In this document: positions 459-19,648 of the stretch, piece by piece | Position numbering within the stretch: position 1 is the stretch's first letter | Layout: each line of letters opens with the position of its first letter | From: Leptonemataceae bacterium | GTDB taxonomy: Bacteria; Spirochaetota; Leptospiria; Leptospirales; Leptonemataceae | DNA: 64,000 nt | Direction: 5' to 3' | NCBI GenBank assembly: GCA_965227295.1 | Contig: OZ245742.1 | Location: forward strand, 512,001-576,000 | Program-made: the position numbers and the translations under genes | The notes under the pieces: model-generated | Told to the model about the DNA's origin: nothing | The model's database searches: none | Seen by the model: the letters and a program-made list of their open reading frames with translations, nothing else

Positions 459-526
459 CTCTGCGGACTCAGTGTTCAATCAGGGCAGCGATGTACGGCT
501 TGACCCGCACTAACTCGTCCTCTAAC

Positions 527-555: not shown

Positions 556-598
556 GTTTGCTAACACGGCCGGCTACGCCTGCCGGAAGAGTCCGTCC

Positions 599-3500
599 AT
601 GCGAATTCCGTCCAATTTCCGCCGCATCACCAGTGCCATCACCGCCGTCGCGCTGGCCCTGGCCACCGTCATCCCGCACCCGTCCCTGCTCGCGCAAACC
701 CCGGTGCCATCCCTCACCCCGCAAGGATTCGACGAGGCCGAGTACGCGGCCCTCTATAATAGTGCGGCGGGCGCGGGCAGTGTCTCCGAATGGCAGGCGT
801 TGATCGACCAGGGCCTGGCCACGTCGCCGCCCTGGGAGGCGACACTGGACACGGAAATCGCCGGCCACGTAGGCGCGGTGACGGACTCGGACGCGTACAA
901 CAACACCGCCGCCTATCAGGACTATCTGGCCGCCCAGCTCGAATTGCAGAAGGGCGCGGACGTGGCGCAGTGGAACGCGGGCTTGAGCGCGCAGGAGGAG
1001 TACCAGCGACAGGTGTATCTCGCCGCGCTCATGAGCAACTACAGCGACGAGATGGAGCAGGAGGCGAACGCCGCGGGCTCGAACGCAAGCTGGCAGGATC
1101 AGTTCGATTACGATTACTACCAGGGCTTAAGAGAATTTGAAACGGCCTTAAGCGCCGTGGACCAGGAGTACGCAACGACGATCAGCGAGCTGGATCAGCA
1201 GGATGCAATCTTCCAACAACGCCTGGCGGAGATCCAGCAGTACGAAGACACCGTGCGTTCGAACATTACGGCGCAGGTGACGAACCTCACGAACTTTCTT
1301 TCGAGCAGCGGCATGTTCTACGACGGCGGCGGCAACCTGAACGCCGCCGGCCTGCAATTGCAGACGCTCCTCGACGACGTCAACGACGGCCTGAACAACG
1401 GCACGGCACTGTCGACGATCAGCGATCAGATTGCCACGTACATGGAAGCGCGGGAAACGGACGCGTTGCAGGAGCAGGCGGACTGGACCGCGGCAAGCAC
1501 GTGGAACGCGAACACTTCGAACACGATCGCCATCGGCAGCCTGAGCGTCTGGTTGGATAGCTATCCGGAAGTCGTCGGGATCATGAACTACGTTCTCGAC
1601 GGGGATGCATCCACGGCCATCGACCAGATTCGCGGGTACATGGGATACGACTCGGCCGTTGATATTACCATCACCGGCGCGGACGCGATCGGTTTTTCGT
1701 ACAGCTATCCTCCTACGGCCCAATGGGGCGGCGAGACGCTTTCGAGTCTGCCTGATAACCCGCATGATTACTACGGAACGACCATCAGCACGAAGTGGGC
1801 GGCGTTCACGTACATCGCATCCGGCTGCTTCGGGCCGAACGTCTGGAATCCGGGGCCCTGCGGTTATCCGGCGAGCCTGCCGGAACAATACACGACAATC
1901 ACTTACGATTTCACCGCCACCGACACCAACGCCGTCGCCAACGCCGCCACCTGGGGCGGTTACGCTGCGGCGCTGGGGCCGATGGCAAACACCTGGCGAA
2001 ACGACGTCATCCCCGCGATTCAGAACTGGGAATCCCAGACCGCCGCCCTCGAAGCGAACTACAGCGCCTGGCAGGCCGAGGCGTCGTCGTTGCGTTCCCA
2101 GGCGGAGTCGCAGTACGCGCAGAGCCGCACGGCGATCCTGGGCGAACGCTCGCAGTGGCTCGGTGAGGTTACACGCATTGCGAACGCCGGCGAAAGCCTC
2201 AGTCGCTCGGCACAAACTTCTACGGAAGAAGAGTTAGCACCGGCGCCGTTACCGGTCGTTCCCCGCGTTACGGCGCAGAGCATCTATAACCGCAATCGCG
2301 ATTCGGAGAACAGCCTCGCCGCGGCCCGCAGCCTGGGCCGGGACACGCTGAGTAATCTTACTTCACCGGATACGAGCGCCCTCGAAAACTTTCTCGAAAC
2401 CACGCAACGCAGCCTCACCGGCCTGCAAAACCTCGCATATACCGAGTCGATTCAGCTCCAGGCCGAAGAGGCGCGGCAACAGACCATCGACATGCTCGTG
2501 GGTATGGTGACGCAGGACAACGTCCAGGAAGAACGCCAGGAGATCGATTACAACCCGTACGAAGACGTGCCGGTATTGCTGCGTCCGGAGGGCTGGGAGA
2601 ACGTCAAAGCGACGCGCCTCGAAACGAACGAGGAGATGCAGGAACGTATCGAGAACCAGCGCGCGCGAAACTACACCGACGTCAAGGTCGGCAAAGACGG
2701 CACGATCATTGCCAGCCGCGCGATCAAGACGGGCGAGGCCGTGTGGAACGGCGGCGATCTTACGAACACGGACGGCTACAGCGCCGCCTACGAAACCCAG
2801 ACCGTCACGATTCGCCCGCCCCAGGCCATCAAACTCGCGAGCGGCGGTGATTTGTTCGCGAGCTGGGACTACGACGAGCTACAAGAATCACATGAAGAGA
2901 ACTTAAGCGACTTCTACGCCGGTCTGGATCGCAAGGTCCAGGCGGCCCAGGGTCAACTCGCAAACGCGAACGAACTGTTCACCGCCCGCGAAACGGCCTT
3001 CCAGCAAAACGCGGCAAGCCAGGCGCAGACCTGGTCCATGATCAAGTCCCTCGTGACTTCGATGATGGGCGGCATGGACCTCGGCTCCGCCCTTGTTGAT
3101 TACGCGAAGAATCAGATCATCGGCCAGGTGGCTTCGCAGATCGAAACGATGACCGGCATTCCCGCGGGTTTCATGTCGAGTATTCTCGGCGGCGCAAATA
3201 TTGAGCAGGCGATGCAATCTTACGCCTGGCAGGTCGTGGGCAGTCACATCGATGAAGTCACCGGCATCTCGGGCCTCGGCTCACAACTCACGGGCATGCT
3301 GCAAAAGCAGATGGCGAAGAAAGCCGCGCGCAACGGGCCGATGGGCAAACTCGCGAACAGCATGGCCGCGATGACGATGGGCGGCGGTTTCGGCGCGATG
3401 GCCGGCTTTATGATGGGCGGGCCGATGGGCATGCTTGCGGGTGCGGCGATGGGTGCGGCTACCGGCGGCGCGATGAACGAGGCCGGCGCGGCCGGATTCG

Positions 3501-6415
3501 CGGCACCGATGGCGGATGTGTTTTATGAAAACCCCATGTTGATGGATGCAACGGCTTACGCAACGGCCAGCGCAACCGGCAACCCGGGCGTCTGGTACGG
3601 CTACCAGGCGATGAAGGGAAGTTACATGGGCGGCACTGTGGGTGCGCTAACGAGCATGGCGGACTCCGCGTTGATGGCGACGCAGTTGGTTGGGGTCGAT
3701 GCGAGTATTTCGTATACGTTCGATGACGGCTTCGGTGGGAGTCTGGGGATTGGCGGAGAGTACGGTAGCATCGGTGTTAATTACAGCGAGAGGAACGGCG
3801 TGGGGGCGTACGGACGCCTCGGCCAGGGTGAGGGATTGAGCATTGGGTTCAGCGTGAGTGAGCACGGCGGGAATTCGATTAACGCCGGATACAGCAGTGG
3901 TGGTGTGAACCTCGGGGTGAGTTATAGTGATCAGACGGGCTTTGGTGCGAACGCGGGATTTGGTGGCGAAATTGCGGATGGTGTGAACGGCAACCTCGGG
4001 TTGAGCTGGAGTGAGACGGAAGGTGTTGGAGCGAATGCGGGAATAACTTACGGCAACGGCGATATCGACAGCATGCTCGGCGGCGGACTCAGTTATACGC
4101 AGAACAGCGGGCTGTCCGCGAGCTTAACTGTCGCCGGTGGTACGTTAGGGACGATTACGGCGGACGGGTTTCAATACAACGCCAACTTCGCAAAAGACGC
4201 GGCCGGGGCGGCGTTGAAGAAGAAGTACGTGGAGGATCGGAAGGCGGAGCGGGCGGAGGAGTTGGAGAAGACGCTTGAGGAGAACCGCAAGAACATGTCG
4301 CCCGAAGAGCGGGCGGCATTCGATAAGCTGAAATCTGTGGAAGATAAGGTCGCGTTCTTGAAGGAGAAGGCCGAGCAAGGCGGCGATGATGCGGTGGTGA
4401 ATGATGCGTATGGGGAGTCGTGGGATAGTCAGGACGGGCTGACAGGATTGCTGGGGAGCTTTGATCTCGGGCAGGATATGCTCAATTTCGCGAATGAAAT
4501 CACAGGTACAAACAGCGACAATACCGGATACATTGATGAGCGAGGAGACTTTCATGTGCGGACATGTTTTCCGGCATGGATGCCCGTCACTGTGGAAGGC
4601 GGCCATCTCGAAGAAATTCAGAACGTGAGAGCCGGCGACCGCGTCCTGACCTTCAATGAAAAAACCGGCGAGTTCGAGTACAAACCAGTCCGCACAGTGT
4701 GGGAGCGCCAGACACACGAGTTCCACGAACTAACATTCGAAGACGGCGTTTTTGTCGAGACGACCTGGTCTCACCCTTTTTATGTAAAAGATCGCGGCTG
4801 GGTGCCGGCTCATAAGCTTCAGCCTGGAGATCTTGTACATACGCGCGCGAGCCTGGCCGCCCAGCAAAGACAGGACAATCTCATCCATAATATTCAACTC
4901 GCAAGTCTTAGCGAAGATAATCTGCGTGAGAGCGGCCTGGACCCGCCGTTGCGCCTGTTAACAGTGAATGTCACGCTGCGCTCGGAAACGGTCTATAACC
5001 TGGACGTCGAAGATAACGATAACTTCTTCGTAAGCTCGGCCCGCATCCTCGTTCACAACCAGAACCACTACGATGATGCCGGCTACGGCGGCGCAACGTT
5101 CTCCGCGGACGGCACCAGCGGATATGGAAACGAGGAGCGCGTCGGCGATGACTCCGGACCTACGGAATACGAACAATTCATCCGCGCTACGAACCAGCCG
5201 ATCATCGAAATCTTCCCGAACGAAGATGAGAACACGAGCACTCCCGCCGCGGAGCCGGAAGATACCGGGTCAGCCACCGCCGGCACCGATGGCGTACCGG
5301 CCGAAACCACTGACGCATCCCGACAACCAGACAATCCGCGCCCTCAGGAGCCGCGCGAAAATGCAACACCGGAATCATCCGCTCCTCAACCCGAAAAGGT
5401 GACTCCAGGCACTACTCTCTGGGAAGATGTCACTGAGTTCTTTACCGCGCCGATTGTGGGTAGCTCATCCATCGCAGACCTGGCTCTGGATTCGGTAGAA
5501 TTTATTCCGGTCGTGGGAGACATTGTGGGTGCGGCTCGCTCCGGAATCGAACTGGCAACGGCAGTCTCAAATGGTGATTGGCCCTCCGCCGGTTGGGCGG
5601 CCGCAGGCGTCGGGCTGAGTATCGTAGGATTGATTCCAGGCATTGGCGATGCCGCGACAGCGATTAAGCATAGCATGAAGCATGGCGCCGATGTTCTGAA
5701 ACACGGCGATGATGTTCTTAAGCACGGCGATGATGTTCTTAAGCACGGAGACGATATCATTCGGCATGCGGACGACTTGCCTACACGCGCCGGCCCGGAT
5801 GTGGCTCCCGGCGCGAATCGCCCGGGCGGCGAAGCGGCCCAGGAACTTCAAGATCGCCAGCGACGCGAGCAGATCGAGCGACAGGAGCGGTATGGTTCCG
5901 ATGAGGGTTCCGGGCAGACACAGCCGCAACCGCAACAACAGCAGCAGGCACCGGATGGAAGGCCGGAGTTTGGCCAGCGTGCGAATCAAGGCGCAATAGG
6001 AACTCAGAATGAACAATTGGGCCGTGGTAATGCTGGCGATCCCACAGGGCCAGGGTACACGCAAGCCCAAAGCCCGGGAGAGCCGAGACAACAAATCCCT
6101 GCAACTCCGAGCGACAATGTAAATCGCGGCGAGATTCCTCCTGCACGTGGATCGCAAAGCCCGACGGGGCGCAGCGAGAATACGAAATCTCAAGATGCAA
6201 CGACCACCGGTAGTGATCGCACGCAAGAGATGCGGGCACAACAACAACATCAGAAACAGGAGCAAATGCGACGCGAGGCCCAAAAAAAAGCGATAGAGCA
6301 GGAGCAACGGAGGCGGCAACAAAATGAGCTAATACAACAGCAAGAGAAACTGCGGAAAGCGCGAGAGCGGCAACAGCAATGGGAGAGCCAACAAAGGCAA
6401 AATATGCAAGACTAA
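599..6415 (+). CDS. Large secreted polymorphic protein (TIGR04388-like, Leptospira large structural protein family) with Hint domain and variable C-terminus
   Basis: Signal peptide (AVALALATVIPHPSLLA-Q), coiled-coil N-terminus and Gly/Met zipper. Gly-Ser beta-repeats, Hint CFPAWMPV...ETTWSHPFYV...VYNLDVEDNDNFFV...LVHN, and a pre-toxin-like DSVEFIPVVGDIV segment. Confidence 0.8.
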   Translation: MRIPSNFRRITSAITAVALALATVIPHPSLLAQTPVPSLTPQGFDEAEYAALYNSAAGAGSVSEWQALIDQGLATSPPWEATLDTEIAGHVGAVTDSDAYNNTAAYQDYLAAQLELQKGADVAQWNAGLSAQEEYQRQVYLAALMSNYSDEMEQEANAAGSNASWQDQFDYDYYQGLREFETALSAVDQEYATTISELDQQDAIFQQRLAEIQQYEDTVRSNITAQVTNLTNFLSSSGMFYDGGGNLNAAGLQLQTLLDDVNDGLNNGTALSTISDQIATYMEARETDALQEQADWTAASTWNANTSNTIAIGSLSVWLDSYPEVVGIMNYVLDGDASTAIDQIRGYMGYDSAVDITITGADAIGFSYSYPPTAQWGGETLSSLPDNPHDYYGTTISTKWAAFTYIASGCFGPNVWNPGPCGYPASLPEQYTTITYDFTATDTNAVANAATWGGYAAALGPMANTWRNDVIPAIQNWESQTAALEANYSAWQAEASSLRSQAESQYAQSRTAILGERSQWLGEVTRIANAGESLSRSAQTSTEEELAPAPLPVVPRVTAQSIYNRNRDSENSLAAARSLGRDTLSNLTSPDTSALENFLETTQRSLTGLQNLAYTESIQLQAEEARQQTIDMLVGMVTQDNVQEERQEIDYNPYEDVPVLLRPEGWENVKATRLETNEEMQERIENQRARNYTDVKVGKDGTIIASRAIKTGEAVWNGGDLTNTDGYSAAYETQTVTIRPPQAIKLASGGDLFASWDYDELQESHEENLSDFYAGLDRKVQAAQGQLANANELFTARETAFQQNAASQAQTWSMIKSLVTSMMGGMDLGSALVDYAKNQIIGQVASQIETMTGIPAGFMSSILGGANIEQAMQSYAWQVVGSHIDEVTGISGLGSQLTGMLQKQMAKKAARNGPMGKLANSMAAMTMGGGFGAMAGFMMGGPMGMLAGAAMGAATGGAMNEAGAAGFAAPMADVFYENPMLMDATAYATASATGNPGVWYGYQAMKGSYMGGTVGALTSMADSALMATQLVGVDASISYTFDDGFGGSLGIGGEYGSIGVNYSERNGVGAYGRLGQGEGLSIGFSVSEHGGNSINAGYSSGGVNLGVSYSDQTGFGANAGFGGEIADGVNGNLGLSWSETEGVGANAGITYGNGDIDSMLGGGLSYTQNSGLSASLTVAGGTLGTITADGFQYNANFAKDAAGAALKKKYVEDRKAERAEELEKTLEENRKNMSPEERAAFDKLKSVEDKVAFLKEKAEQGGDDAVVNDAYGESWDSQDGLTGLLGSFDLGQDMLNFANEITGTNSDNTGYIDERGDFHVRTCFPAWMPVTVEGGHLEEIQNVRAGDRVLTFNEKTGEFEYKPVRTVWERQTHEFHELTFEDGVFVETTWSHPFYVKDRGWVPAHKLQPGDLVHTRASLAAQQRQDNLIHNIQLASLSEDNLRESGLDPPLRLLTVNVTLRSETVYNLDVEDNDNFFVSSARILVHNQNHYDDAGYGGATFSADGTSGYGNEERVGDDSGPTEYEQFIRATNQPIIEIFPNEDENTSTPAAEPEDTGSATAGTDGVPAETTDASRQPDNPRPQEPRENATPESSAPQPEKVTPGTTLWEDVTEFFTAPIVGSSSIADLALDSVEFIPVVGDIVGAARSGIELATAVSNGDWPSAGWAAAGVGLSIVGLIPGIGDAATAIKHSMKHGADVLKHGDDVLKHGDDVLKHGDDIIRHADDLPTRAGPDVAPGANRPGGEAAQELQDRQRREQIERQERYGSDEGSGQTQPQPQQQQQAPDGRPEFGQRANQGAIGTQNEQLGRGNAGDPTGPGYTQAQSPGEPRQQIPATPSDNVNRGEIPPARGSQSPTGRSENTKSQDATTTGSDRTQEMRAQQQHQKQEQMRREAQKKAIEQEQRRRQQNELIQQQEKLRKARERQQQWESQQRQNMQD
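2451..4050 (+). repeat. Long direct repeat copy A, shared with 11609-13208
   Basis: Near-identical colinear DNA at a constant offset of 9158 bp, starting at ttcagctccaggccgaaga. Differences are mostly synonymous. Confidence 0.95.
4565..5059 (+). other. Hint (bacterial intein-like) autoprocessing domain 1
   Basis: Starts with Cys (TGT 4565). Block B TxxH (TWSH), block F VYNLDV, ends in His-Asn. The next residue is Gln. Confidence 0.9.
5678..5779 (+). repeat. 21-bp coding tandem repeat (KHGDDVL-type heptad, 4 clear copies plus 1 degenerate)
   Basis: aagcatggcgccgatgttctg / aaacacggcgatgatgttctt / aagcacggcgatgatgttctt / aagcacggagacgatatcatt / cggcatgcggacgac. Confidence 0.9.
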
Positions 6416-6445
6416 CTATGGTTTAATGTCCAACGTGACGCAAGT

Positions 6446-7465: not shown

Positions 7466-7491
7466 ACCTTGAGTCCCCATAGTGAACCCCT

Positions 7492-8505: not shown

Positions 8506-8571
8506 GAAGGCCATCCTGTTCACAGAATTTGCACGTCACCAATCCCCATCTTCCGCGCCCCTACCCGTCAC

Positions 8572-9594: not shown

Positions 9595-9636
9595 CGACCC
9601 GGTAACTTCCATGCGAAGACCCAGGGTTCCAATGAA

Positions 9637-10002: not shown

Positions 10003-10031
10003 ATCTCTATTAGAACCCGCACATTTCGGCC

Positions 10032-11039
10032 ATGGACCGGCAAATTCAAGAACTACGAGACGCAGTTCGTCAGGATCCGAACGATCCGGAGAACTGGTTG
10101 GAACTCGGCATTGCACTTCGAGAGTCTGGAGACGCAGAGGAAGCGATACTGGCGCTATCGAAGGCGCACGAACTCGCGCCTGAACATGACTTAACGGCAC
10201 TCAATCTCGCGTTAGCCCTGGGAGACGTCGATCGGCATCAGGAAGCCATTCGTGTCGCGGATGGTATTCTCGGTCGCAAAGATTCTGCCGATGCCCGTTA
10301 TCTGAAGGCCTGGTCATTGAATCAACTCGGGCAGTCCCAGGAGGCCCTGGAGATATTCCTGCGGGGTATCCAGAGCGAAGGGGATGCACGCAGCCACTCG
10401 GGCGCAGCCTCGGCCTATGCCCGACTCGGACGGTATCGAGAATCACTCAATGCCTATGAGCATGCCCTCGAACTGGACCCGGATTTCAACGAAGACGCTC
10501 AGTTTCTGTACGGCCTGGCATTGGCTCAATCTGCGCTGGGACAACGATCTGTCGCGATAGAAACCCTCACCCGCGCCTATGCGATGGCACCCCAAAACCG
10601 GAGCATCGGCAATGAATTAGGCAAGCTTCTCGGGTTGAGCGGCCAGTATACGAAAGCAATCGAGGTCCTGACTGAGGTATCGGAAAATTTTCCTGACGAT
10701 TACTTCCCCCTGAACAATCTCGCGCATGCATATCTCTACGCAGGTATGCCGCGCAAGAGCCTCCCGTACTTCGACCGCACGATCGAACTCGCCCCCGACT
10801 ATCCGAACTCCCGATTCGGCCGCGGTGATGCCCTGATGCAAGTCAAAGACTACGGCAGCGCAATTGATGATTTTCTCCAGGCCACACGAATCATGCCGGA
10901 AGTCGTCTACGGCTGGAAAAGCCTTGTGCAATGCTATCTTGAGCTGGGAAAAGTCAATGAGGCAAAGTCCGCGCTCGGTGAAGCACTACAACTTCATCCG
11001 GATGCCCGGGACCTGCTGGACATGCAACAGATCCTGTAG
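10032..11039 (+). CDS. TPR protein (type B'), paralog of 7492 ORF
   Basis: TPR motifs. NNLAHAYLYAGMPRKSL..FD..IE.APDY.NSRFGRG is shared with 7492. Confidence 0.85.
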   Translation: MDRQIQELRDAVRQDPNDPENWLELGIALRESGDAEEAILALSKAHELAPEHDLTALNLALALGDVDRHQEAIRVADGILGRKDSADARYLKAWSLNQLGQSQEALEIFLRGIQSEGDARSHSGAASAYARLGRYRESLNAYEHALELDPDFNEDAQFLYGLALAQSALGQRSVAIETLTRAYAMAPQNRSIGNELGKLLGLSGQYTKAIEVLTEVSENFPDDYFPLNNLAHAYLYAGMPRKSLPYFDRTIELAPDYPNSRFGRGDALMQVKDYGSAIDDFLQATRIMPEVVYGWKSLVQCYLELGKVNEAKSALGEALQLHPDARDLLDMQQIL

Positions 11040-11092
11040 CACTGAGACAGTTCGTTTCATCGGAGATCCTCGAATGGAAGCCGGGTGTTGGC

Positions 11093-11160
11093 TGGTACCG
11101 CGAAGAGAAAGGCCGTATCATCTTGCAGTTGGTCAAGGGCGAGAAGCAGCTCGTCGACGT
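11093..11160 (+). pseudogene. Possible fragment of an IS3-type OrfA/HTH transposase
   Basis: Translates as WYREEKGRIILQLVKGEKQLVDV, which resembles transposase N-terminal HTH openings. It is cut off by the ~420-bp repeat. Confidence 0.25.
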
Positions 11161-11581
11161 CCACCAATCCGGGGAGCCCACCCAAGAACTTCCCCTACCT
11201 GGGCCCAGATCCTTAATTTTTCGCGAGCATTGTCTTGCAAAAATTCATTCCCCAATCCATTCTGTGCTTTCCGCGCTCAACAAGCGCACCGGAATCTCGG
11301 TTCGTAACCGAACTCCGGCCATCCGTTCTTTAACAGAACGCAACGATTCTCGAACGGGTCCGTTGCGTAAAAGGCAAGCCCGCCTGGGCCGATACAAGCA
11401 ATTCCGCACACGTGTGCGGAATTCAAGGTCGCGCGCATCGCCACTGCTAACCTGTGAATAACAAGCGTTAGGGACACGCAGGGTGGCGAAGCCAGTCTCG
11501 CGCAGCGAGACCGAAGCGAAGCGGAGCCCGGAGTGGCCCGACGGCCCGCCGCCTCCGCGGCGCGGCGGGCCGGAACGCCCA
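11160..11581 (+). repeat. ~420-bp structured non-coding element, copy 1
   Basis: Colinear with 17555-17975. Contains TTGCAA-17bp-CATTCT, several hairpins, a perfect 24-bp palindrome (11400-11423) and a terminal GC-rich REP-like hairpin. Confidence 0.9.
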
Positions 11582-14500
11582 ATCAAACATCGTTACTGCT
11601 TCACCTCGTTCAGCTCCAGGCCGAAGAAGCCCGGCAACAGACCATCGACATGCTCGTGGGTATGGTGACGCAGGACAACGTCCAGGAAGAACGCCAGGAG
11701 ATCGATTACAACCCGTACGAGGACGTGCCGGTGTTGCTGCGTCCGGAGTGCTGGGAGAACGTCAAAGCGACGCGCCTCGAAACGAACGAGGAGATGCAGG
11801 AACGCATCGAGAACCAGCGCGCGCGAAACTACACCGACGTCAAAATCGGCAAGGACGGCACGATCATTGCCAGCCGCGCGATCAAGACCGGCGAGGCCGT
11901 GTGGAACGGCGGTGATCTTACGAACTCGGACGGCTACAGCGCCGCCTACGAAACCCAGACCGTCACGATTCGCCCGCCCCAGGCCATCAAACTCGCGAGC
12001 GGCGGTGATTTGTTCGCGAGCTGGGACTACGACGAGCTACAAGAATCACATGAAGAGAACTTAAGCGACTTCTACGCCGGTCTGGATCGCAAGGTCCAGG
12101 CGGCCCAGGGTCAACTCGCAAACGCGAACGAACTGTTCACCGCCCGCGAAACGGCCTTCCAGCAAAACGCGGCGAGCCAGGCGCAGACGTGGTCCATGAT
12201 CAAGTCGCTTGTGACTTCGATGATGGGCGGCATGGATCTCGGCTCCGCCCTCGTGGATTACGCGAAGAATCAGATCATCGGCCAGGTGGCTTCGCAGATC
12301 GAAACGATGACCGGCATTCCCGCGGGTTTCATGTCGAGTATTCTCGGCGGCGCAAATATTGAGCAGGCGATGCAATCTTACGCCTGGCAGGTCGTGGGCA
12401 GTCACATCGATGAAGTCACCGGCATCTCGGGCCTCGGCTCACAACTTACGGGCATGTTGCAAAAGCAGATGGCAAAGAAGGCCGCGCGCAACGGACCCAT
12501 GGGCAAACTCGCAAACAGTATGGCCGCGATGACGATGGGCGGCGGTTTCGGCGCGATGGCCGGCTTTATGATGGGCGGGCCGATGGGCATGCTTGCGGGT
12601 GCGGCGATGGGTGCGGCTACCGGCGGCGCGATGAACGAGGCCGGCGCGGCCGGTTTCGCGGCACCGATGGCGGATGTGTTTTATGAAAACCCGATGCTGA
12701 TGGATGCGACGGCCTACGCAACGGCCAGCGCAACCGGTAACCCTGGCGTCTGGTACGGCTACCAGGCGATGAAGGGAAGTTACATGGGCGGCACCGTTGG
12801 TGCGCTAACGAGCATGGCGGACTCGGCGCTGATGGCGACGCAGTTGGTGGGCGTGGATGCGAGTATTTCGTATACGTTCGATGACGGCTTCGGTGGAAGC
12901 CTGGGTTTCGGCGGGGAATACGGCAGCGTTGGTGTGAGTTACAGTGAGCGGGACGGCATGGGGGCGTACGGGCGTCTGGGGTCCGGCGACGGCTTGAGCA
13001 TTGGGTTTAATGTGAGTGAGCACGGCGGGAATTCGATTAACGCCGGATACAGCAGCGGCGGTGTGAACCTCGGGGTGAGTTATAGTGATCAGACCGGCTT
13101 TGGTGCGAATGCTGGGTTTGGTGGTGAAATTGCGGATGGCTTAAACGGCAATCTCGGGTTGAGCTGGAGTGAGACGGAAGGTGTTGGAGCGAATGCGGGA
13201 TTAACTTACGGTAACAGTGACTTAGGGAATGCCATGGGCGCGGGCCTGAGTTATACGCAGAACAGCGGACTCAGCGCGAACGTGAGTCTGGCCGGCGCCA
13301 CACTGGCCTCGATCGCCCAGGGCGGAAATTTGCAGTTTAACAGCAATTTCGCGAGCGATGCCGGGCGCGGGGTGTTGAAAGAAGAGTACGTTAAGCAACG
13401 GAAAGAAGAACGCCTCGATGGTCTGGAGGAAGCGCTGGATGACGCCGGTGAGCTGACGGAAGAAGAGAAGCAGTTTTTGAAAGAGAATCCTGGTAAACGA
13501 CAGGCGTTTTTGGAGAAGAAGGCGGCGGAGATTAAGGATCGCGTTGAGAAGCTTGGTGATAAGTCCTCGGAAGCGGATGATTACGGCAGCTCCTGGGATA
13601 ATCAAGGCGGCCTCACAGGGCTCCTCAGTTCGTTCGACCTTGGCAAAGATATTCTCAATTTCGCGAATGAGATTACGGGCACGAATAGCGATAATACCGG
13701 TTTCGTTGACTCCGAAGGTAAGTTCCACGTTCGGACTTGTTTTGTCGCCGGGACCCTGGTTCGTGTACGCAAAGATGCTCCTGGCGCTTTTGAAGAAGGC
13801 GGAGAATGGTTTAAGAAAATTGAGGATGTGGGTGTCGGCGATCATGTCCTGAGCTGGGACGAAAAATCCGGTGCCGTTAGCTTCCAGCCCGTGACGGAGC
13901 TGTTCCGACATGATGTGGAATTGATCTTCGAGATCGCGTACGTAGACGGCACGATAATTGAGACGACGTGGAACCACCCGTTCTTTGTGCCGGATGTCGG
14001 TTGGGTGGAAGCACGCCACCTTCGCGGCGGGGATCGCTCTTTGTCTGCGGCCGGGGAGATGCTGGTGATTGCGAGCGTGCGCGAAATGCGGCGTGAGGCG
14101 CGGGTATTTAACTTTGAGGTGAAGCGGAATCATACTTATTTTGTAGGGCCAGCGGGCGTGCTGGTGCATAACTATGATTTGCGGACCGGAACCGTGGATG
14201 AGGAACGTGACCTCAAAGAGGTCCTTGCCAAAGTTAATGAAGAATTGGGCCTTGATTATACTTTAGAGGAACTGGCCGATTTGAATGGTATTGAGCCGCA
14301 AGGTCATTGCCTGACATATGCCAGTGTCACATGCGATTATCCTATAGTTGAGGGACAACAGATCCTGACTGAGGAGCAATACAAGGACTTATCAGAAGAT
14401 GAGCGCACGAGCTTCTTTGATAACCCTAAGAATCCTAAGGAAACTGGAGTCTACCAGGTCACCCTAAGTGCAGGCGCGATGTTTTTTTCAGGGCATTACT

Positions 14501-14952
14501 GGGACATCGGGTTTGTCGATGAAACGACACATATTGGACGATTCACACAATCGCGGGGGCTACCGATCCAATCATATACTCGCACTATTGGCGAGGGCGG
14601 AGATATTACGGCGGGTATGACCATTCAAATGGTGGAAAACACAACAATTGAGGATTTTGTTTTTGGGAACGAACTATTCATGACTTCAGAAGTCGATGGC
14701 GGCCTTCCGTTCTGGAATCCAGGATTGATTATGCGTGCGAATAATAGCTACGCGGGTTGGCTCGCGAATTTCGGCCTGACCCCAGGCCTCGGAGTAGCGG
14801 TATCAAGTAACCAGACACCGGACCTGGCTGGAAATACAACTGCGCCCCTTGGAACAGGATGGTGGCCGGGTGGCCCCGCGACAATTTCAACGGAGCATTG
14901 TATCCTGAGTACGTCTCAAAAAACGGGACCAATAAGCGTGGATTGCCTTTGA
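11533..14952 (+). CDS. 5'-truncated (orphan/silent) cassette of the large Hint protein, with a different Hint and C-terminal domain
   Basis: From 11609 it matches residues ~618 onward of ORF 599 and lacks the signal peptide. Hint CFVAGTLV...ETTWNHPFFV...VFNFEV...LVHN-Y is followed by an unrelated C-terminus. Confidence 0.8.
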   Translation: MARRPAASAARRAGTPNQTSLLLHLVQLQAEEARQQTIDMLVGMVTQDNVQEERQEIDYNPYEDVPVLLRPECWENVKATRLETNEEMQERIENQRARNYTDVKIGKDGTIIASRAIKTGEAVWNGGDLTNSDGYSAAYETQTVTIRPPQAIKLASGGDLFASWDYDELQESHEENLSDFYAGLDRKVQAAQGQLANANELFTARETAFQQNAASQAQTWSMIKSLVTSMMGGMDLGSALVDYAKNQIIGQVASQIETMTGIPAGFMSSILGGANIEQAMQSYAWQVVGSHIDEVTGISGLGSQLTGMLQKQMAKKAARNGPMGKLANSMAAMTMGGGFGAMAGFMMGGPMGMLAGAAMGAATGGAMNEAGAAGFAAPMADVFYENPMLMDATAYATASATGNPGVWYGYQAMKGSYMGGTVGALTSMADSALMATQLVGVDASISYTFDDGFGGSLGFGGEYGSVGVSYSERDGMGAYGRLGSGDGLSIGFNVSEHGGNSINAGYSSGGVNLGVSYSDQTGFGANAGFGGEIADGLNGNLGLSWSETEGVGANAGLTYGNSDLGNAMGAGLSYTQNSGLSANVSLAGATLASIAQGGNLQFNSNFASDAGRGVLKEEYVKQRKEERLDGLEEALDDAGELTEEEKQFLKENPGKRQAFLEKKAAEIKDRVEKLGDKSSEADDYGSSWDNQGGLTGLLSSFDLGKDILNFANEITGTNSDNTGFVDSEGKFHVRTCFVAGTLVRVRKDAPGAFEEGGEWFKKIEDVGVGDHVLSWDEKSGAVSFQPVTELFRHDVELIFEIAYVDGTIIETTWNHPFFVPDVGWVEARHLRGGDRSLSAAGEMLVIASVREMRREARVFNFEVKRNHTYFVGPAGVLVHNYDLRTGTVDEERDLKEVLAKVNEELGLDYTLEELADLNGIEPQGHCLTYASVTCDYPIVEGQQILTEEQYKDLSEDERTSFFDNPKNPKETGVYQVTLSAGAMFFSGHYWDIGFVDETTHIGRFTQSRGLPIQSYTRTIGEGGDITAGMTIQMVENTTIEDFVFGNELFMTSEVDGGLPFWNPGLIMRANNSYAGWLANFGLTPGLGVAVSSNQTPDLAGNTTAPLGTGWWPGGPATISTEHCILSTSQKTGPISVDCL
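11609..13208 (+). repeat. Long direct repeat copy B
   Basis: Near-identical to 2451-4050. Confidence 0.95.
13738..14172 (+). other. Hint autoprocessing domain 2
   Basis: Cys start (TGT 13738), TWNH, VFNFEV, terminal His-Asn. The next residue is Tyr. Confidence 0.9.
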
Positions 14953-14965
14953 TTCGGTTGCATGA

Positions 14966-15322
14966 ATGATGAACCTGGGGACAAGACGAATTCTATGCAT
15001 TACGGGTTTTGGATTGAGCCTGTTTCTAGCCAGCCAGTGGGCTTCTCCGCAGCAGATTGAGACCAATGCATTACTTGTCGTGCCAGGTGGCTATTGTATC
15101 GTCGGAGCATACGAATACAATGGGATACTAGAGAAAGAACAGGCTTTCTCTTACTGTGCTTCAGGCGTGCTGCAAGGTGGCGATGGGCACGGGATTCGAG
15201 AGTATCATAAGATTGCGGAAATCTGGGTTCCTTATCCAAAGGTTGTCGAAATCCGTGATTTCCCGGAGTGCTTACATGTACTAGCCAACACCCGATCTGA
15301 CACTCCTGCCTGTCAGATATGA
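14966..15322 (+). pseudogene. Putative cognate immunity/partner gene of cassette 2, interrupted by IS481 (last ~15 codons are IS-derived)
   Basis: Starts 13 bp after the cassette stop. N-terminal hydrophobic segment and LLVVPGGYC motif. The IS terminal repeat begins at 15277, inside the ORF. Confidence 0.55.
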
Positions 15323-16431
15323 TCAGGTCGATACCTGATGCTGTTTATGCAGCATCTTTTCACGCGCCACGGCGATGGATTCAGCGAACGTTTGCGCCGG
15401 CGTCTTGCCGAAGCAGTACTTGCCGCTGTGCGTCCGTTCCTGGTTATACTCGAGCATCCATTCATCCAGATCGGCTTGCAGCTCCTCGATGCTTGAGTAA
15501 AGTTTCTTGCGAAACGCGACGGCGTAGAATTCTTCCTGAATCGTCTTGTGAAAGCGTTCGCAGACGCCGTTCGTTTGCGGATGCCGCGCTTTGGTTTTGG
15601 TGTGATCGATGTCCTCCATCGCGAGGTACAACTCGTACTCGTGATTCTCCGGCTTGCCGCAGTACTCCGTGCCGCGATCGGTGAGCACGCGCAGCAGCGG
15701 GATGTTGTAGTCCGCGTAGAACGGCAACACACGATCGTTCAGCAAGTCGGCCGCCGTCAGTGCGTTCTTGCGATCGTAAAGTTTTGCAAAGCCGACCTTA
15801 GCGTACGTGTCGATGAAGGTCTGCTGGTAGATCCGCCCCACGCCCTTGATATTGCCCACGTAATACGTGTCCTGCGAGCCCAGATAGCCGGGGTGGTGCG
15901 ATTCGACCTCGCCGTGCGCTTCTTTGTCCTGGCGGCCTTTCTCAAGCGCCGCGACCTGTGCCTCGGTGAGAATGATCCCCTCTTGCGCGACGCGGGCTTC
16001 CAGGGCCTTCAGACGCTTCTTGAACGTCTCCATGTCGTGCCGCAACCAGACCTGACGCACGCCGCCCGGTGAGATCGAAACGCCGCGCTTGCGCAGCTCA
16101 TTCGACACGCGCAATTGACCGTGCGCCGGCTTCTCGAACGTGAACTCGATCACCGCGTCTTCCACATCCGCCGGAATCCGGTTCTTCTTGTTCGGCTTGC
16201 GCCGCGTGAGATCCTTCAGGGCCTCTTCGCCTCCGGTCTCGTACAACCGCTGATACCGGTAGAACGTATCGCGTGATACGCCCATCACCCGGCAAGCCTC
16301 TGCAACGTTATTCAGAGTACGGGCCAGCCTCAAGATGCCCACCCGGTGCTTTACGATTTTTTGTTCTGCTGTCATCTCTTTCCTCCGATACAAATTATAT
16401 CGGAGTGTCAGATGGAATCTTGACTATTTCA
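15277..16431 (-). mobile_element. IS481-family insertion sequence
   Basis: Imperfect terminal IRs tgtactagccaacacccgatctgacactcc vs tgaaatagtcaagattccatctgacactcc (23/30). Single DDE transposase. gcttaca occurs at 15270-15276 and 16437-16443. Confidence 0.85.
15323..16375 (-). CDS. IS481-family transposase
   Basis: HTH (NVAEACRVMGVSRDTFYRY) and rve integrase core (QDTYYVG, LTDRGTEY, PQTNGVCERFHKT). ATG with a GGAGG RBS at 16375. Confidence 0.93.
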   Translation of the reverse strand: MTAEQKIVKHRVGILRLARTLNNVAEACRVMGVSRDTFYRYQRLYETGGEEALKDLTRRKPNKKNRIPADVEDAVIEFTFEKPAHGQLRVSNELRKRGVSISPGGVRQVWLRHDMETFKKRLKALEARVAQEGIILTEAQVAALEKGRQDKEAHGEVESHHPGYLGSQDTYYVGNIKGVGRIYQQTFIDTYAKVGFAKLYDRKNALTAADLLNDRVLPFYADYNIPLLRVLTDRGTEYCGKPENHEYELYLAMEDIDHTKTKARHPQTNGVCERFHKTIQEEFYAVAFRKKLYSSIEELQADLDEWMLEYNQERTHSGKYCFGKTPAQTFAESIAVAREKMLHKQHQVST

Positions 16432-16707
16432 AGTGAGCTTACAAAGCGTCTTGCTCAAGCACGCTTTACCGGTTGGCGCCTTATTGGAATAGCAGATCTG
16501 ACGGCGTATCCAGTTTCATTACACATATCCAGTATAGCTTTAGCTACTCTTGAAAAAGAAGGAACGACACTGACATTGTTGTTTGAAATTTCTCATAAAA
16601 GGGCTCTCCGAATTCGAGCGTTTGCAGCTGATTTTAGCAATCAAACGCATTTTGTAGCATCGGAGGGGCTCTTCTACCCATGAGACGGCCAGAGATCTCG
16701 TGCAGTT

Positions 16708-16760
16708 TTACGCCACTTTCCTTAATTTTTTCCCGGCCATTTTCTTGCAGAAATTCATTC
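16708..16760 (+). repeat. Partial third copy of the promoter-proximal part of the 420-bp element
   Basis: ttacgccactttccttaattttttcccggccattttcttgcagaaattcattc resembles 17594-17646 and 11210-11250. Confidence 0.7.
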
Positions 16761-16942
16761 TAAAGTGCGACTAGTATATTTCATCTCTGAACAAATGGAG
16801 AAAGGTGTACTTATTGAAAAAACACAGATACTTACTTTGCATGGCGACAGGCTCCAGAGGCTGGAATCATATCCGGGAAATTTTGGAGGGGCCAGTGCTT
16901 ATTTCATGATCCCACTCGTTCTCTTGGGTCAGAGCGAGAAGG

Positions 16943-17392
16943 GTGCTAAGGAACCATAACGTGACGCTCAAAGCATCCCGATTTTGCTTCTTTATTGGTT
17001 TGGGTCTTGTTTTTACGGGCATAGTATATTTCCTCCAAGGCTTGCGGACGGCAGAAGTGCAAAGTCCCGAAAGCCTTCTGTTGCAGCCCGGAATTTACTG
17101 CGTTTTCCAGTCTGGCAAACTGCCTTCGCAGGGCTCTCAATTTTGTATGAAAGGTTACTGGAACAAGAGCTATGGAACTCTCTACTACCATCATACACTG
17201 CTTGTCATTGTGCCGCAGGTGTGGCCCGGGAGGCAAAGTCGGATCGGAAGGCAGATTAAGCACGAGCCTCTTTATGTCAGTGCGTCTATGTATCATTCTG
17301 GGTTCGGTCTGTCGATTCTCGTTCTGGGGCTTTTCTTGCTGAGGCGAGGGTATGAATTTTTTAAGTGGCTCCTCATTCGGCTACTTAGCTGA
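16943..17392 (+). CDS. Membrane protein (2 TM), apparent paralog of the 14966 ORF; candidate orphan immunity protein
   Basis: N- and C-terminal hydrophobic helices. LLLQPGIYC...FCMKG...YHH...VIVP mirrors LLVVPGGYC...YCASG...YHK...IWVP. The start may be GTG 16961. Confidence 0.5.
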   Translation: MLRNHNVTLKASRFCFFIGLGLVFTGIVYFLQGLRTAEVQSPESLLLQPGIYCVFQSGKLPSQGSQFCMKGYWNKSYGTLYYHHTLLVIVPQVWPGRQSRIGRQIKHEPLYVSASMYHSGFGLSILVLGLFLLRRGYEFFKWLLIRLLS

Positions 17393-17393
17393 G

Positions 17394-17554
17394 GATAACG
17401 TCCCGAATCTTTCGCGAAAAGGTGGGTTCTCCTCACCTGACCTCCGGCGATCATTTGTTCCTTCAGCACCTCCCGCAACAGGTCGATGTTGAGATACTTG
17501 CGTGAACTCCAGTTCGTCGCCGCCACATGCCGCGCCGCGACCAACGCCAGGCCA
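17394..17554 (-). pseudogene. IS256-family transposase 3' remnant with right end
   Basis: The minus strand translates as LALVAARHVAATNWSSRKYLNIDLL, like IS256 C-termini. The end gataacgtcccgaatctttcgc resembles IS256-type terminal IRs. Confidence 0.55.
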
Positions 17555-17975
17555 TCCACCAATCCGGGGAGTCCGCCCAAGGACTTCCCCCACTTACGCC
17601 ACTTTCCTGACATTTTTCGCAAGCATTGTCTTGCAAAAATTCATTCCCCAATCCATTCTATGTCTTCGCGCTCAACAAGCGCGCCGGATTCTCGGTTCGT
17701 AACCAAACTCCGGCCATCCGTTCTTTAACAGAACGCAACGAATCCCGAACGGGTCCGTTGCGTAAAAACAAGCCGCCCTCGCCCGGCGTTAGCAATTCCG
17801 CACACGTGTGCGGAATTCAAGGTCGCGCGCATCACCACTGCTAACCTGTGAATAACAAGCGTTAGGGACACGCAGGGTGGCGAAGCCAGTCTCGCGCAGC
17901 GAGACCGAAGCGAAGCGGAGCCCGGAGTGGCCCGACGGCCCGCCGCCTCCGCGGCGCGGCGGGCCGGAACGCCCA
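17555..17975 (+). repeat. ~420-bp structured non-coding element, copy 2
   Basis: Colinear with 11160-11581. Palindrome aattccgcacacgtgtgcggaatt at 17794-17817. Confidence 0.9.
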
Positions 17976-17977
17976 GA

Positions 17978-18071
17978 GAAGTCACCGGCATCTCCGGCCT
18001 CGGCTCGCAACTCACGGGCATGTTGCAGAAGCAGATGGCAAAGAAAGCCGCGCGCAACGGGCCGATGGGCA
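17978..18071 (+). pseudogene. 94-bp internal fragment of the large Hint protein gene (third, vestigial cassette)
   Basis: Matches 3254-3347 and 12412-12505, and encodes EVTGISGLGSQLTGMLQKQMAKKAARNGPMG. Confidence 0.9.
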
Positions 18072-18209
18072 CCTTACCAGGCATCAGTCTTTTCTTTTCT
18101 CCGACGAAACTCGAAAGTACCGAAAGATTGACGTCCACGAAACCGTAGCACAAAAGATCCATCGGCGCGCCGATGAAGCCGTTGCCACGCCGAAGGAGAC
18201 GAACACGAA

Positions 18210-18923
18210 TTGCGCCACACCCTCCTCCCGGCCCTCCTCTTCCTCGTCGCCTGTCACGCCGGCAATCCCCTGGTCCGTCCGGACGATCCCGGAAATCCGG
18301 ACGCCGCTTACGTAGTCTTCCGCCTCGTCTACGGACACGGCGAGACGCCGTTGCATTTCGGAAACTACTTCCGCGAGCGCATGCGGCGTTACGTGCCCGT
18401 GTCGCAGCCCATCCACAATTACGCGTCAACCCTGGCGATCACCAGCCCGTACGGCCGCCGGCACAAACTCGAGGTCCAGAACGAATGGTACATCCTGCGA
18501 TTTGAGGACGGCGGCAGCGGACGCAGCGTCTATCTGCGCGAACTACAGGCACAACTCACGTACAGCGGCAGCGAAATCGCCGGGAACCCGTTCACCGAAC
18601 TATTCACGGCGGAACGATCCTTTCGTTACGAAGAAGTACGCCAGGGCGAAACAACCGTACGCCAGGAAGTTCCCATCGTGCGGTTCACAAAAACGATTCC
18701 CATTCATACAACCATCGCCGTACTCCCGCGCACCCTGGTCTACGGCGGCGATCTCTACATCAGCGAAGATCCGCAACGACCGAATACAGACTTGCGCTGT
18801 AGATGGGAACCGGGTATGAATGACGAAACTCTGCGCCGCTTCTTAAGCGAACGTTATCTTTACACCGGGCTCGCGGACTTACCCCGCCGGCACCGTCCCA
18901 TGCAGAGCCCCTGTCAGTCATGA
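18210..18923 (+). CDS. Hypothetical lipoprotein
   Basis: Signal with lipobox LLFLVA-C. AAGGAG upstream. Overlaps the next gene at ATGA. Confidence 0.7.
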   Translation: MRHTLLPALLFLVACHAGNPLVRPDDPGNPDAAYVVFRLVYGHGETPLHFGNYFRERMRRYVPVSQPIHNYASTLAITSPYGRRHKLEVQNEWYILRFEDGGSGRSVYLRELQAQLTYSGSEIAGNPFTELFTAERSFRYEEVRQGETTVRQEVPIVRFTKTIPIHTTIAVLPRTLVYGGDLYISEDPQRPNTDLRCRWEPGMNDETLRRFLSERYLYTGLADLPRRHRPMQSPCQS

Positions 18924-19582
18924 AGCATCTCAACTTTCTCATCCAACCATCCGCGTACTTCGCAAACACCCACACGCCGCGCGCCGGCTTTCTCATCGTC
19001 GGTATCGTCATCGGCGTCATGACGCTGCTCGTGCTCATCAGCGAGTTTCTGCCGCGCGTGGAGTCCTCCGCGACGGACGGCTCCGCAAATTCAGAACAGT
19101 TCGAGGAAATCCGCAACTCCGCGGACTTCGATCTGCCGCCGACTGCCGGTGCTTCGCGCTGGTACGTGAAGCCGTTGTTCTTTCCAATTTTGTGGATGAT
19201 CTTTCTTGCGTACTGCAGTGGGGCGCGTCTGCTCTTCGCAACGATTCTCGGCGAAACGAAGGCCGCGGGCCGCGGCCTGCTTGCGAGCGGCAGCGTCAGC
19301 GTTCTCGCCGCCGTGCCCATCGTCATTGCCGGCGGTCTCCTGAGCGCGTACACCACAATCGTCCCGCACGGCAGCCTGGCCGGCGGCGACGTTGCGGACC
19401 TGGCCGCGCGGCTCTCGCTCAGCTTCGGCGCGTTGTTTCTCGCGTTTCTGTGGGAAGGGCTGATCGCCGTCGCCGGTTACCGCGCGGTACTGGAACAGAA
19501 TCGCGGCCGGGCCGTGCTCATGTGGCTCGTCCCGTACTTCGGCTGCGTCGGAATTGCGATTCTGTTGAATCTCTTCACATAA
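18920..19582 (+). CDS. Yip1-like multi-pass membrane protein
   Basis: Five hydrophobic segments, N-terminal LIQPSAYF, and translational coupling. Confidence 0.6.
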   Translation: MKHLNFLIQPSAYFANTHTPRAGFLIVGIVIGVMTLLVLISEFLPRVESSATDGSANSEQFEEIRNSADFDLPPTAGASRWYVKPLFFPILWMIFLAYCSGARLLFATILGETKAAGRGLLASGSVSVLAAVPIVIAGGLLSAYTTIVPHGSLAGGDVADLAARLSLSFGALFLAFLWEGLIAVAGYRAVLEQNRGRAVLMWLVPYFGCVGIAILLNLFT

Positions 19583-19648
19583 TCCGGGACGCTCCGTCCC
19601 CTAAAAGAACGCTTGCATCGGCCGTGTACACGCCGGACATTGGAACGG

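Follow-up and report, generated by a model that had tools for sequence, protein, structure and literature searches.

The window analysed here is a 64,000-nucleotide stretch of a single-contig Leptonemataceae genome that is 93.5% complete by marker count. It carries a full-length polymorphic toxin gene and, further downstream, two truncated toxin sequences, each headed by a copy of an element of about 420 bases. The only Rfam match in the whole window is a tRNA. The array consists of the following features:

599..6415, + strand: full-length polymorphic toxin gene, the "main" gene of the window array (1938 aa, PT-HINT; PF07591, 3.9e-14)
11160..11234, + strand: upstream segment common only to the two window copies of the element (77% identity; repeat search, MAFFT)
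11235..11263, + strand: promoter-like boxes TTGCAA (11235-11240) and CATTCT (11258-11263) with a 17-nt spacer; predicted start at ~11270, putative function
11265..11399, + strand: module A (covariance model R2, compensatory changes), with hairpins H1 11273-11287, H2 11289-11318, H3 11324-11341 (only in the window type, W-type), H4 11340-11367 and H5 11378-11389
11400..11423, + strand: perfect palindrome AATTCCGCACACGTGTGCGGAATT (9 genome sites)
11424..11463, + strand: linker; its hairpin CTAAC...GTTAG (11447-11471) extends into the start of module C (sequence, BLAST)
11464..11581, + strand: module C, a dispersed structured MITE/REPIN-like repeat ending in ...GGAACGCCCA (nhmmer, covariance model R1, covariation)
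11609..14952, + strand: 5'-truncated toxin cassette with its own PT-HINT and C-terminal part, homologous from main-protein residue 618 onwards (sequence comparison)
14966..15322: small AT-rich ORF after the cassette, from its position a likely immunity gene
15277..16431, - strand: insertion sequence behind the cassette, with an rve/HTH transposase ORF at 15323-16393 (HTH_29, rve_3)
16707..16760, + strand: third, partial copy, with the W-type upstream and -35 segment only, ahead of AT-rich ORFs
17555..17975, + strand: second full element copy (boxes 17631-17636 and 17654-17659; R2 match 17659-17821; palindrome 17794-17817; module C 17858-17975)
17978..18071, + strand: 94-nt toxin stub, main-protein residues 886-918, the last toxin remnant of the window array (sequence comparison)

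The initial annotation had described the two element copies as colinear, structured and absent ahead of the full-length gene, and these observations are borne out. The stretches 11160-11581 and 17555-17975 align colinearly with sharp ends on both sides (MAFFT; BLAST query 1-422, 92% identity, E 1.9e-170). By repeat search, identity between them is 77% over 11160-11221, 95% over 11272-11372 and 94% over 11370-11581, and the last ~140 nt are identical on reading of the alignment blocks. Toxin-gene DNA follows each copy after 2-27 nt and, as had been claimed, starts at different points of the gene: 11609-11908 corresponds to positions 2451-2750 of the full gene at 97% identity and 17978-18071 to positions 3254-3347 at 95%, i.e. 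in the PT-HINT protein of 1938 aa the toxin homology begins at residue 618 and residue 886, respectively. No copy lies ahead of the full-length gene: between genome positions 480,8xx and 523,4xx, neither nhmmer nor R1 or R2 gives a match. The listed stems and the perfect 24-nt palindrome are present in the sequence. The sense-strand fold of 11268-11585 reaches -143.9 kcal/mol (z = -4.59, 0 of 100 shuffles as good), while the antisense fold has z = -2.95, with 1 of 100 shuffles as good; covariation, given below for the two parts separately, also speaks for a structured element.

What did not stand is the notion of one dedicated unit. When the element is compared with the genome by BLAST, its positions 1-240 occur at 2 sites, 241-305 at 9, and ~306-422 at ~100. 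The element is thus very probably a composite, in which an array-specific module A/B (the ~230 nt upstream of module C) is fused to a copy of a MITE-like repeat. The proposed MITE/REP-like nature consequently applies to module C, not to the element as a whole.

Module C makes up the last ~118 nt of the element, the 3' third, and family copies measure ~105-140 nt. With nhmmer, 175 matches are found in the genome, 84 on the forward and 91 on the reverse strand, and 154 of them lie outside gene calls, as drawn by a crude ORF filter made for this analysis. The covariance model R1 scores 134.6 bits at window positions 11464..11581; for some other copies, the BLAST match already begins in the linker, at element position 278. 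In a fold of 73 copies, 96.7% of the cells are paired, against 35-50% in slid controls, and both partners have changed in 16 of 25 pairs. Such double changes fill 238 cells, a count reached in 0 of 500 shuffles; the alignment used for counting, like the one for A/B, was fitted to its structure. A G-U pair that persists in 68 of 72 rows identifies the sense strand as the folded strand. Helix 1 joins 5' GCGTT with 3' AACGC and covaries, and there is no clean long inverted repeat. Some ~70-80% of 144 copies keep the flanks TCTT and AAAAGA; reading these revealed no target-site duplication, and a non-exhaustive search identified no parent transposon or transposase. Wherever two copies are neighbours within 400 nt, they have inverted orientation (21 of 21 pairs; 8 head-to-head and 13 tail-to-tail). 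Replication strands are used without the bias that single-strand transposition would lead one to expect (94 vs 81, P = 0.36). Relative to genes, there is a mild bias for the sense orientation in tandem gaps (58 vs 35 antisense, P = 0.02), and convergent gaps hold more copies than divergent ones (39 vs 22, P = 0.04). The 3' end is sharp and is followed by variable sequence. Here, the terminal GC hairpin is succeeded by GGAACGCCCA and A-rich sequence; the hairpin lacks the U-tract that an intrinsic terminator would have.

Correia, ERIC and REP are bacterial repeats of the MITE/REP type, and Leptospirales are reported to be MITE-rich (PMC11602168). Module C resembles such elements: it is short (~120-135 nt), non-coding, mostly intergenic and present in many copies, its ends pair, it is present or absent between species, and it forms inverted doublets. 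It differs from MITEs and REPINs in that it folds into a multi-helix form with long-range stems instead of one hairpin, in that searches gave neither a partner transposase nor a RAYT and its flanks show no target duplication, and in that one of its subfamilies is fused to A/B and fixed at the starts of toxin cassettes.

Within Leptospirales the module C family goes far back, and its burst in this genome is recent. Relatives give a match in 111 of 151 Leptospirales genomes. Of 150 candidates scored per genome, 149 match here and 2 in each of two same-genus species, and both orthologous intergenic sites tested (2/2) are free of module C in the two same-genus genomes. Module C represents a structured repeat family that spans the order Leptospirales and is absent from Rfam. 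At toxin loci of other Leptospirales (34 loci, 404 kb), only 1 weak, non-adjacent match was detected.

Module A/B has a very different distribution. There are 9 copies in the genome, all ahead of 5'-truncated polymorphic-toxin cassettes, in five arrays. R2, which was built from the 7 copies outside the window, aligns full-length to both window copies with 51 and 50 bits (E 8e-15 at the 11265..11399 copy), where the palindrome alone gives ~24-27 bits; it has exactly 9 full-length sites in the genome. Window A/B and the other 7 copies yield no BLAST alignment except for the palindrome. Six pairs with compensatory changes lie in H1, H2 and H4, a covariation drawn from two lineages only, i.e. the W-type versus the other 7. 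The palindrome measures 24 nt in the window copies and 26 nt, with G/C ends, in the others. With up to 2 mismatches allowed, the genome has 9 sites, each within one of the 9 long elements, and raising the limit to 4 adds none; between these sites the palindrome differs by at most 1 base. Outside this genome, A/B was found neither by BLAST (0 of 41 family genomes) nor by R2 with stricter filters (0 of 150 other Leptospirales genomes). For the palindrome, the genome-contig database gives 0 matches, and 3 metagenome contigs carry the bare palindrome 20-mer only, accompanied by neither A/B nor C.

The initial annotation had pointed to promoter-like boxes. They are present. All 9 long copies preserve TTGCAA and a spacer of 17 nt, the sequence of which varies (TTGCAA-N17-CATNCT); however, the boxes match the sigma-70 consensus at 7-8 of 12 positions by our own count, and a generic scan, which needs 9, did not call them. 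A sigma-54 reading of TTGCAA was rejected by reading, there being no GG at the required distance (consensus as given in the accessible part of PMC5243855). So was a leader peptide in A/B: the other variant has a frame of 11-17 codons, and the window copies lack an AUG. We tentatively regard A/B as a transcribed promoter and leader, and place this slightly below the point of balance. That the array-specific A/B is conserved implies that it has a part in the expression or exchange of silent cassettes.

The element is closely tied to truncated toxin genes. Starting from the toxin side, the search shows that the element heads 13 of 13 truncated toxin fragments in the genome, in keeping with the earlier suggestion that it marks cassettes. 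Twelve junctions lie at the exact 3' end of module C and 1 at the A/B end; 11 fragments have module C within 114 nt, 1 has a module C that is split by a group II intron, and 1 has A/B only. From the element side, 11 of 175 module C copies have toxin homology within 900 nt downstream, beginning 3-27 nt past the end in 10 of them. Upstream toxin homology exists in just 1 of 175 copies and represents the C-terminus of the preceding cassette; on this ground we rejected the idea that the element had merely inserted itself into toxin genes that were intact. The breakpoints are situated at residues 618, 886, 1219/1220, 1298, 1220 (of another gene), 2776, 3174, 3247/3249, 3429 and 3529; at least 10 are distinct, and they have no common microhomology. 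Several junctions are shared by descent, so that ~10 independent events have to be assumed, not 13. The initial annotation had named many dispersed copies, with no enrichment next to these genes, as the outcome that would speak against it. Module C does consist of dispersed generic copies, but its enrichment at toxin cassettes holds nonetheless (rough binomial P of 5e-13 to 3e-17), and the link between element and cassettes is almost certainly non-random. Two exceptions qualify the pattern. Five of 14 array copies (b2279, b2282, b2289, c5011, e42) have module C but no A/B, hence the promoter is not universal; in a2362, A/B is joined directly to toxin DNA with no C in between, hence the end of C is not the sole junction.

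The same association is visible in the comparison between species. The sister species that lack the repeat burst also show no short-frame toxin fragments and have no detectable orphans: PT-HINT matches above the cut-off fall into frames shorter than 1782 aa in 0 of 11 cases there, versus 4 of 14 here.

Taken together, the explanation we favor has three steps, and we judge its chances of being right overall to be evenly poised. First, the 3' end of the mobile repeat would be a recombining end that clips copies of toxin genes, either by an adjacent deletion of the transposase type, with a hypothetical enzyme, or by illegitimate joining at a hairpin-protected DNA end. That the cassette junctions were made by the end of a mobile repeat is a proposal to which we give about equal weight for and against. 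Second, direct repeats and the retained toxin homology would allow arrays to expand and shuffle by ordinary homologous recombination, which would explain why breakpoints recur within an array. Third, A/B would provide a promoter and a structured sense leader of ~200 nt, read through C into the cassette, which has no other promoter, and into its likely immunity gene; for the invariant palindrome, the role would be that of a site for a sequence-specific protein or RNase.

A simpler account would regard the element as a passive hitch-hiker. Here, C would be an ordinary MITE behind the first toxin operon and A/B a neutral spacer, both copied along, as arrays duplicated and swapped segments, without any role in making or expressing cassettes. 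Several observations agree with this: copies are most alike within an array (90-95% in array a, 92% in the window), some breakpoints recur inside one array, module C is generic, and two giant main genes are 98% identical, which indicates that whole loci duplicate. On the other hand, ~10 different breakpoints all adjoin the same element end, and the diverged window A/B still keeps the box spacing, three helices with compensatory changes and the unchanged palindrome. Moreover, the type of A/B does not track the toxin family, as b2285, with a toxin related to that of the window, carries the other type. We therefore consider passive copying unlikely.

Less probable still is a dedicated cassette-switching device formed by A/B and C. 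The promoter might fire through the palindrome and the GC-rich multi-hairpin repeat into the homology segment of the silent cassette, and recombination with the expressed main gene might be targeted by this transcription or by structure, through an R-loop, a stalled fork or cleavage of a hairpin; new cassettes would meanwhile arise where the mobile repeat ends. Silent-cassette systems with a cis-acting structured or transcribed element exist in Neisseria, where the pilE G4 sequence has a small RNA and is accompanied by pilS copies, and in the immunoglobulin switch regions, with their germline promoters. By analogy only, these systems share with the present arrays 5'-truncated silent copies that recombine with one expressed gene, and a promoter and GC-rich, structure-prone sequence beside the recombining segment; their sequences are unrelated, and a stimulus of recombination by transcription or structure is hypothetical here.

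We assign a similarly low probability to a stand-alone small RNA gene, in which the promoter would drive a structured RNA of ~310 nt. Its 3' end would be the terminal hairpin of C, and it would work in trans, for instance on toxin/immunity expression, with the position at cassettes being secondary. The conserved boxes with a 5' hairpin directly behind them, the G-U pairs that mark the sense strand, and the strong GC hairpin at the 3' end would suit such a gene. So would the group II intron found 6 nt behind the terminal hairpin in two separate module C copies, as class C group II introns insert at terminator-like stem-loops. But the hairpin has no U-tract, and the promoter part is missing in five array copies. 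Nor is there a family match: against Rfam 15 at E up to 10, the element gives two chance-level matches only, and the other variant 0.

Integrons consist of promoterless cassettes that are separated by folded attC sites, variable in sequence but conserved in structure, with a promoter at the head. As an equivalent, the element or its 26-bp palindrome could serve a recombinase as a site of the attC/attI, dif or hix type, where cassettes are inserted, excised or shuffled. A repeated, folded site indeed delimits successive promoterless cassettes, and the palindrome is invariant in variable surroundings; its size and symmetry are those of a recombinase core site. However, the serine recombinase domain (PF00239) has 0 matches in the genome, with positive controls in 12 of 14 genomes, the 4 tyrosine recombinases (PF00589) all lie away from the arrays, and no recombinase or IntI-type integrase is found among 86 scanned array ORFs. 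In addition, the palindrome is located ~160 nt inside the element, away from the junction. Integrons carry complete ORFs at a fixed core site, whereas the cassettes here are pieces of a single gene family, severed at arbitrary positions (residues 618 to 3529), and each has promoter-like boxes of its own. Site-specific capture is accordingly very improbable, and the attC or REP-RAYT type of machinery that had been envisaged from the hairpins is unsupported. Least probable of all is an IS200/IS605-type PATE, a REP-RAYT element or a guide-RNA scaffold with the toxin 3' flank as guide: hairpin-rich ends lacking the usual terminal inverted repeats, inverted doublets and the sharp 3' end before variable sequence would fit, but neither Y1/HUH domains (RAYT, TnpA; PF01797, controls positive in 6 of 14 genomes) nor the TnpB zinc ribbon (PF07282, controls positive) have any match in this single-contig genome, and a replication-strand bias is absent.

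The three-step explanation, with the repeat end at its core, can be set against what is known of orphan toxin-immunity modules. For CDI, Rhs and T6SS effector genes, switching is accepted to proceed by homologous recombination between orphan and main gene, in the parts of the literature accessible to us (PMC3150448, PMC3967940, PMC5361080). The arrays described here are of the same kind, as judged from these partial texts: 5'-truncated fragments downstream of a full-length gene retain a conserved stretch (75-98% identical to the main gene), beyond which lie a divergent C-terminal part and then a small ORF. The difference is that every orphan here begins at the same element end, while in the available text of the same papers no structured repeat or promoter module heads the described orphans. 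Likewise, none of the listings and passages returned by a full-text literature search describes a repeat or leader ahead of orphan cassettes. How strings of such cassettes arise has so far been explained only by rare, homology-facilitated illegitimate recombination, with neither an integrase nor other machinery known, according to the portion of PMC5361080 that was available. The element end at the starts of truncated genes hints at how silent toxin arrays are built. Because all 13 truncated cassettes adjoin one element, and sister species have neither the burst nor the orphans, the repeat is a concrete and testable candidate for the cutting and joining step.

Some minor observations concern the assembly. 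The assembled contigs of three runs on window positions 1-20000 break at repeats and give no independent view of the junctions. One short contig, X2, joins 11287 to 17708 with 24 other letters in between and is too short to interpret. The insertion sequence at 15277..16431 appears as a contig of 1155 nt at about five-fold depth.

The element is composite in make-up, a fusion of an upstream module (A/B) and a 3' module (C). With its 422 nt as a BLAST query against the whole genome (a single contig of 5.94 Mb), positions 1-240 match the two window copies only; the palindrome region has 9 matching sites, while about a hundred match positions ~306-422. The features of the window concerned are:

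599-6415: full-length toxin gene; product of 1938 aa with a PT-HINT domain; four TPR proteins come next
11160-11581: first copy of the element
promoter-like boxes to about 11463: module A/B
11464-11581: module C
11533-14952: truncated toxin frame with its own PT-HINT domain
17555-17975: second copy of the element

Alignment and BLAST agree with the initial annotation that the two copies are colinear; both ends are sharp and the identity is 92%. They are least alike upstream of the promoter-like boxes (77%, repeat family D11), and 94-95% identical beyond (families D8 and D4). All the stems named there and the 24-nt palindrome can be found in the sequence, no copy lies upstream of the full-length gene, and toxin-gene DNA does follow both copies from different points of the gene: 11609-11908 corresponds to 2451-2750 of the full-length gene (97% identity), and 17978-18071 to 3254-3347 (95%). 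The sense-strand fold of the element beats 100 of 100 shuffles (z = -4.59); the antisense fold stands out less (z = -2.95). At 16707-16760, in front of AT-rich ORFs, the upstream segment of the window type recurs a third time as a partial copy that contains the first box.

Both modules are conserved in structure. An nhmmer profile detects 175 copies of module C in the genome, 84 on the plus and 91 on the minus strand, and 154 of them are intergenic by crude ORF-based gene calls. The copies have a common architecture, not a common sequence: a closing helix joins both ends, two further helices are long-range, and the local hairpins, three to four in number, vary in sequence between copies. Covariation was scored on 73 copies aligned to a covariance model of module C (R1), an alignment that is fitted to the model and hence favours structure. 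Here, 96.7% of cells pair (35-50% in slid controls), and both-side changes occur at 16 of 25 pairs (238 cells), a level reached in none of 500 shuffles. One G-U pair is retained in 68 of 72 distinct rows, which indicates that the folded strand is the strand given. The copies scanned here have no match in Rfam.

By its SecY relatives, the genome groups with uncultured Leptospirales close to Leptonemataceae. With 21 candidates scored per genome, R1 has matches in 111 of the 151 Leptospirales genomes; the alignments in Leptospira-like genomes retain the same helices. At 150 candidates per genome, at least 149 matches are found in this genome versus 2 in each of two same-genus species, both of which lack module C at two intergenic sites that are orthologous to occupied ones here. 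Module C is a mobile repeat with a conserved structure, distributed across the order. Leptospirales are reported among the orders richest in MITEs (PMC11602168). The genome-wide copies have no replication-strand bias; behind genes, the sense orientation is mildly preferred.

Neighbouring copies less than 400 nt apart are inverted in 21 of 21 cases genome-wide and never direct (e.g. 342952-343151 and 4838657-4838877), 8 of them head-to-head with gaps of 19-32 nt and 13 tail-to-tail. Such pairs form REPIN-like doublets; no RAYT is detectable in the genome. One copy of module C harbors a group II intron (locus L174, 5840-7725; genome 2367840-2369725) with matches to Rfam RF02001, RF01998 and RF00029 and an ORF for a 471-aa reverse transcriptase/maturase. 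It is inserted 6 nt behind the terminal hairpin (...GGAACG|GTGTG...). Because a second genomic copy (2020597) occupies the same relative site in another module C, it seems that the repeat is a homing target of the intron.

Module A/B is confined to the toxin arrays and known from a single genome. Seven further long copies of ~400 nt lie near genome positions 768,005, 2,285,639, 2,362,780, 2,367,438, 2,377,198, 2,381,103 and 5,007,916. Their mutual identity is 79-95%, and BLAST similarity to the window copies is limited to the palindrome and module C. When aligned, all nine long copies open with TTGCAA, separated by 17 nt of varying sequence from a second box that reads CAT(A/T)CT or nearly so; hairpins, palindrome and module C follow in this order, except that a2362 (array a, ~2362 kb) is without module C. 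A covariance model (R2; 188 nt, 45 pairs), built solely from the seven non-window copies and covering the stretch between the second box and the end of the palindrome, recovers both window copies at full length with 51 and 50 bits, versus ~24-27 for the palindrome alone, and detects nine full-length sites genome-wide, no more. Between the two variants, which represent two lineages only, six pairs in three helices show compensatory changes, and wobble pairs point to the sense strand. Across the nine sites, the palindrome varies by no more than one base, and no other site in the genome matches it at up to 4 mismatches. A/B was found neither by BLAST in 41 family genomes nor by R2 in 150 Leptospirales genomes; a search of one genome per GTDB species gave no match to the palindrome core, and three metagenome contigs carry the bare palindrome only. 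The pattern of what A/B has conserved, although the divergence left no sequence similarity, speaks for a function. The simplest reading would be a sense-strand promoter plus leader; five array copies are without A/B.

The genome contains at least 17 full-length toxin genes in two size classes (~1100-2600 aa and ~4300 aa) and, according to tblastn, 13 toxin fragments without the 5' part. Module C ends 0-114 nt upstream of 11 of these. In another one it is split by the group II intron, behind which the repeat's last bases and toxin DNA continue, and one is headed by A/B alone. A fourteenth array copy, d768 (~768 kb), heads an 836-aa frame with weak similarity to the toxin. At the level of sequence, the junction of the element with toxin fragments is exact and repeated: toxin homology lies within 900 nt downstream of 11 of the 175 copies, starting 3-27 nt past the end in 10. 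The breakpoints in the toxin are:

window: residues 618 and 886
array a: residues 2776, 3174, 3247 and 3249
array b: residues 1219/1220 and 1298
array c: residues 3429 and 3529
array e: residue 1220

No microhomology is common to these breakpoints. In three arrays, only a short toxin stub (99, 255 or 168 nt) follows the last element copy. The initial annotation had contrasted such a link with many dispersed copies lacking enrichment; module C is indeed dispersed, but its enrichment at toxin cassettes still stands. Module C occupies 152 of the 4525 intergenic gaps (crude gene calls); on this basis, its presence at 12 of 13 cassettes, or in 9 of 10 independent cases, has a rough probability of about 1e-17 to 1e-13. 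In the two same-genus species, each of the 11 PT-HINT matches above the cut-off belongs to a frame of at least 1782 aa; in this genome, 4 of 14 belong to frames of 558-1164 aa. In 34 toxin loci from other Leptospirales, 404 kb in total, the only module C match is weak and non-adjacent.

Simple insertion of the element into intact toxin genes is ruled out, since toxin homology precedes only 1 of 175 copies, where it is the C-terminus of the preceding cassette. For the origin of the junctions we infer two possible routes, transposase-driven adjacent deletion or illegitimate joining at a DNA end that is structured and protected; a precise element end, many positions without microhomology and a repeat-burst genome are as expected from either. 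The latter would fit the homology-facilitated illegitimate recombination that PMC5361080 proposes for orphan toxin arrays. The arrays may later have expanded by homologous recombination, with which breakpoints recurring within arrays and closest copies within one array are compatible; for Rhs orphans, such expansion is shown in PMC3967940. The search for a RAYT/HUH or integron integrase suggested by the initial annotation revealed no Y1/RAYT transposase in the genome, nor TnpB or a serine recombinase, and none of the four tyrosine recombinases lies at a toxin array. The 86 ORFs of five arrays comprise only IS transposases, a reverse transcriptase from a group II intron, and small ORFs of typical kind.

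One tyrosine recombinase gene (2989756-2990193) lies upstream, at a distance of ~3 kb, of the full-length toxin gene 2993199-2998730, for which the search detected no truncated fragments. At 5063716-5126799, five paralogous toxin genes of full length cluster on one strand, with none of the detected truncated fragments inside; tandem full-length copies, the substrate that an adjacent-deletion model requires, hence exist in the genome. Behind the first truncated cassette, the window contains an insertion sequence of 1155 bp (15277-16431) with an HTH + rve transposase and about five-fold contig depth; the same transposase occurs within array a (genome 2375233-2376303). Downstream of the window array, ORFs 20218-21516 and 22058-23338 are neighbouring paralogues (73-78% identical, 20758-21201 versus 22577-23020). 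Another local repeat family, unrelated to the element, occupies 34783-35981 (D1, D7, D9, D10), with units of 64-254 nt spaced 370-470 nt.
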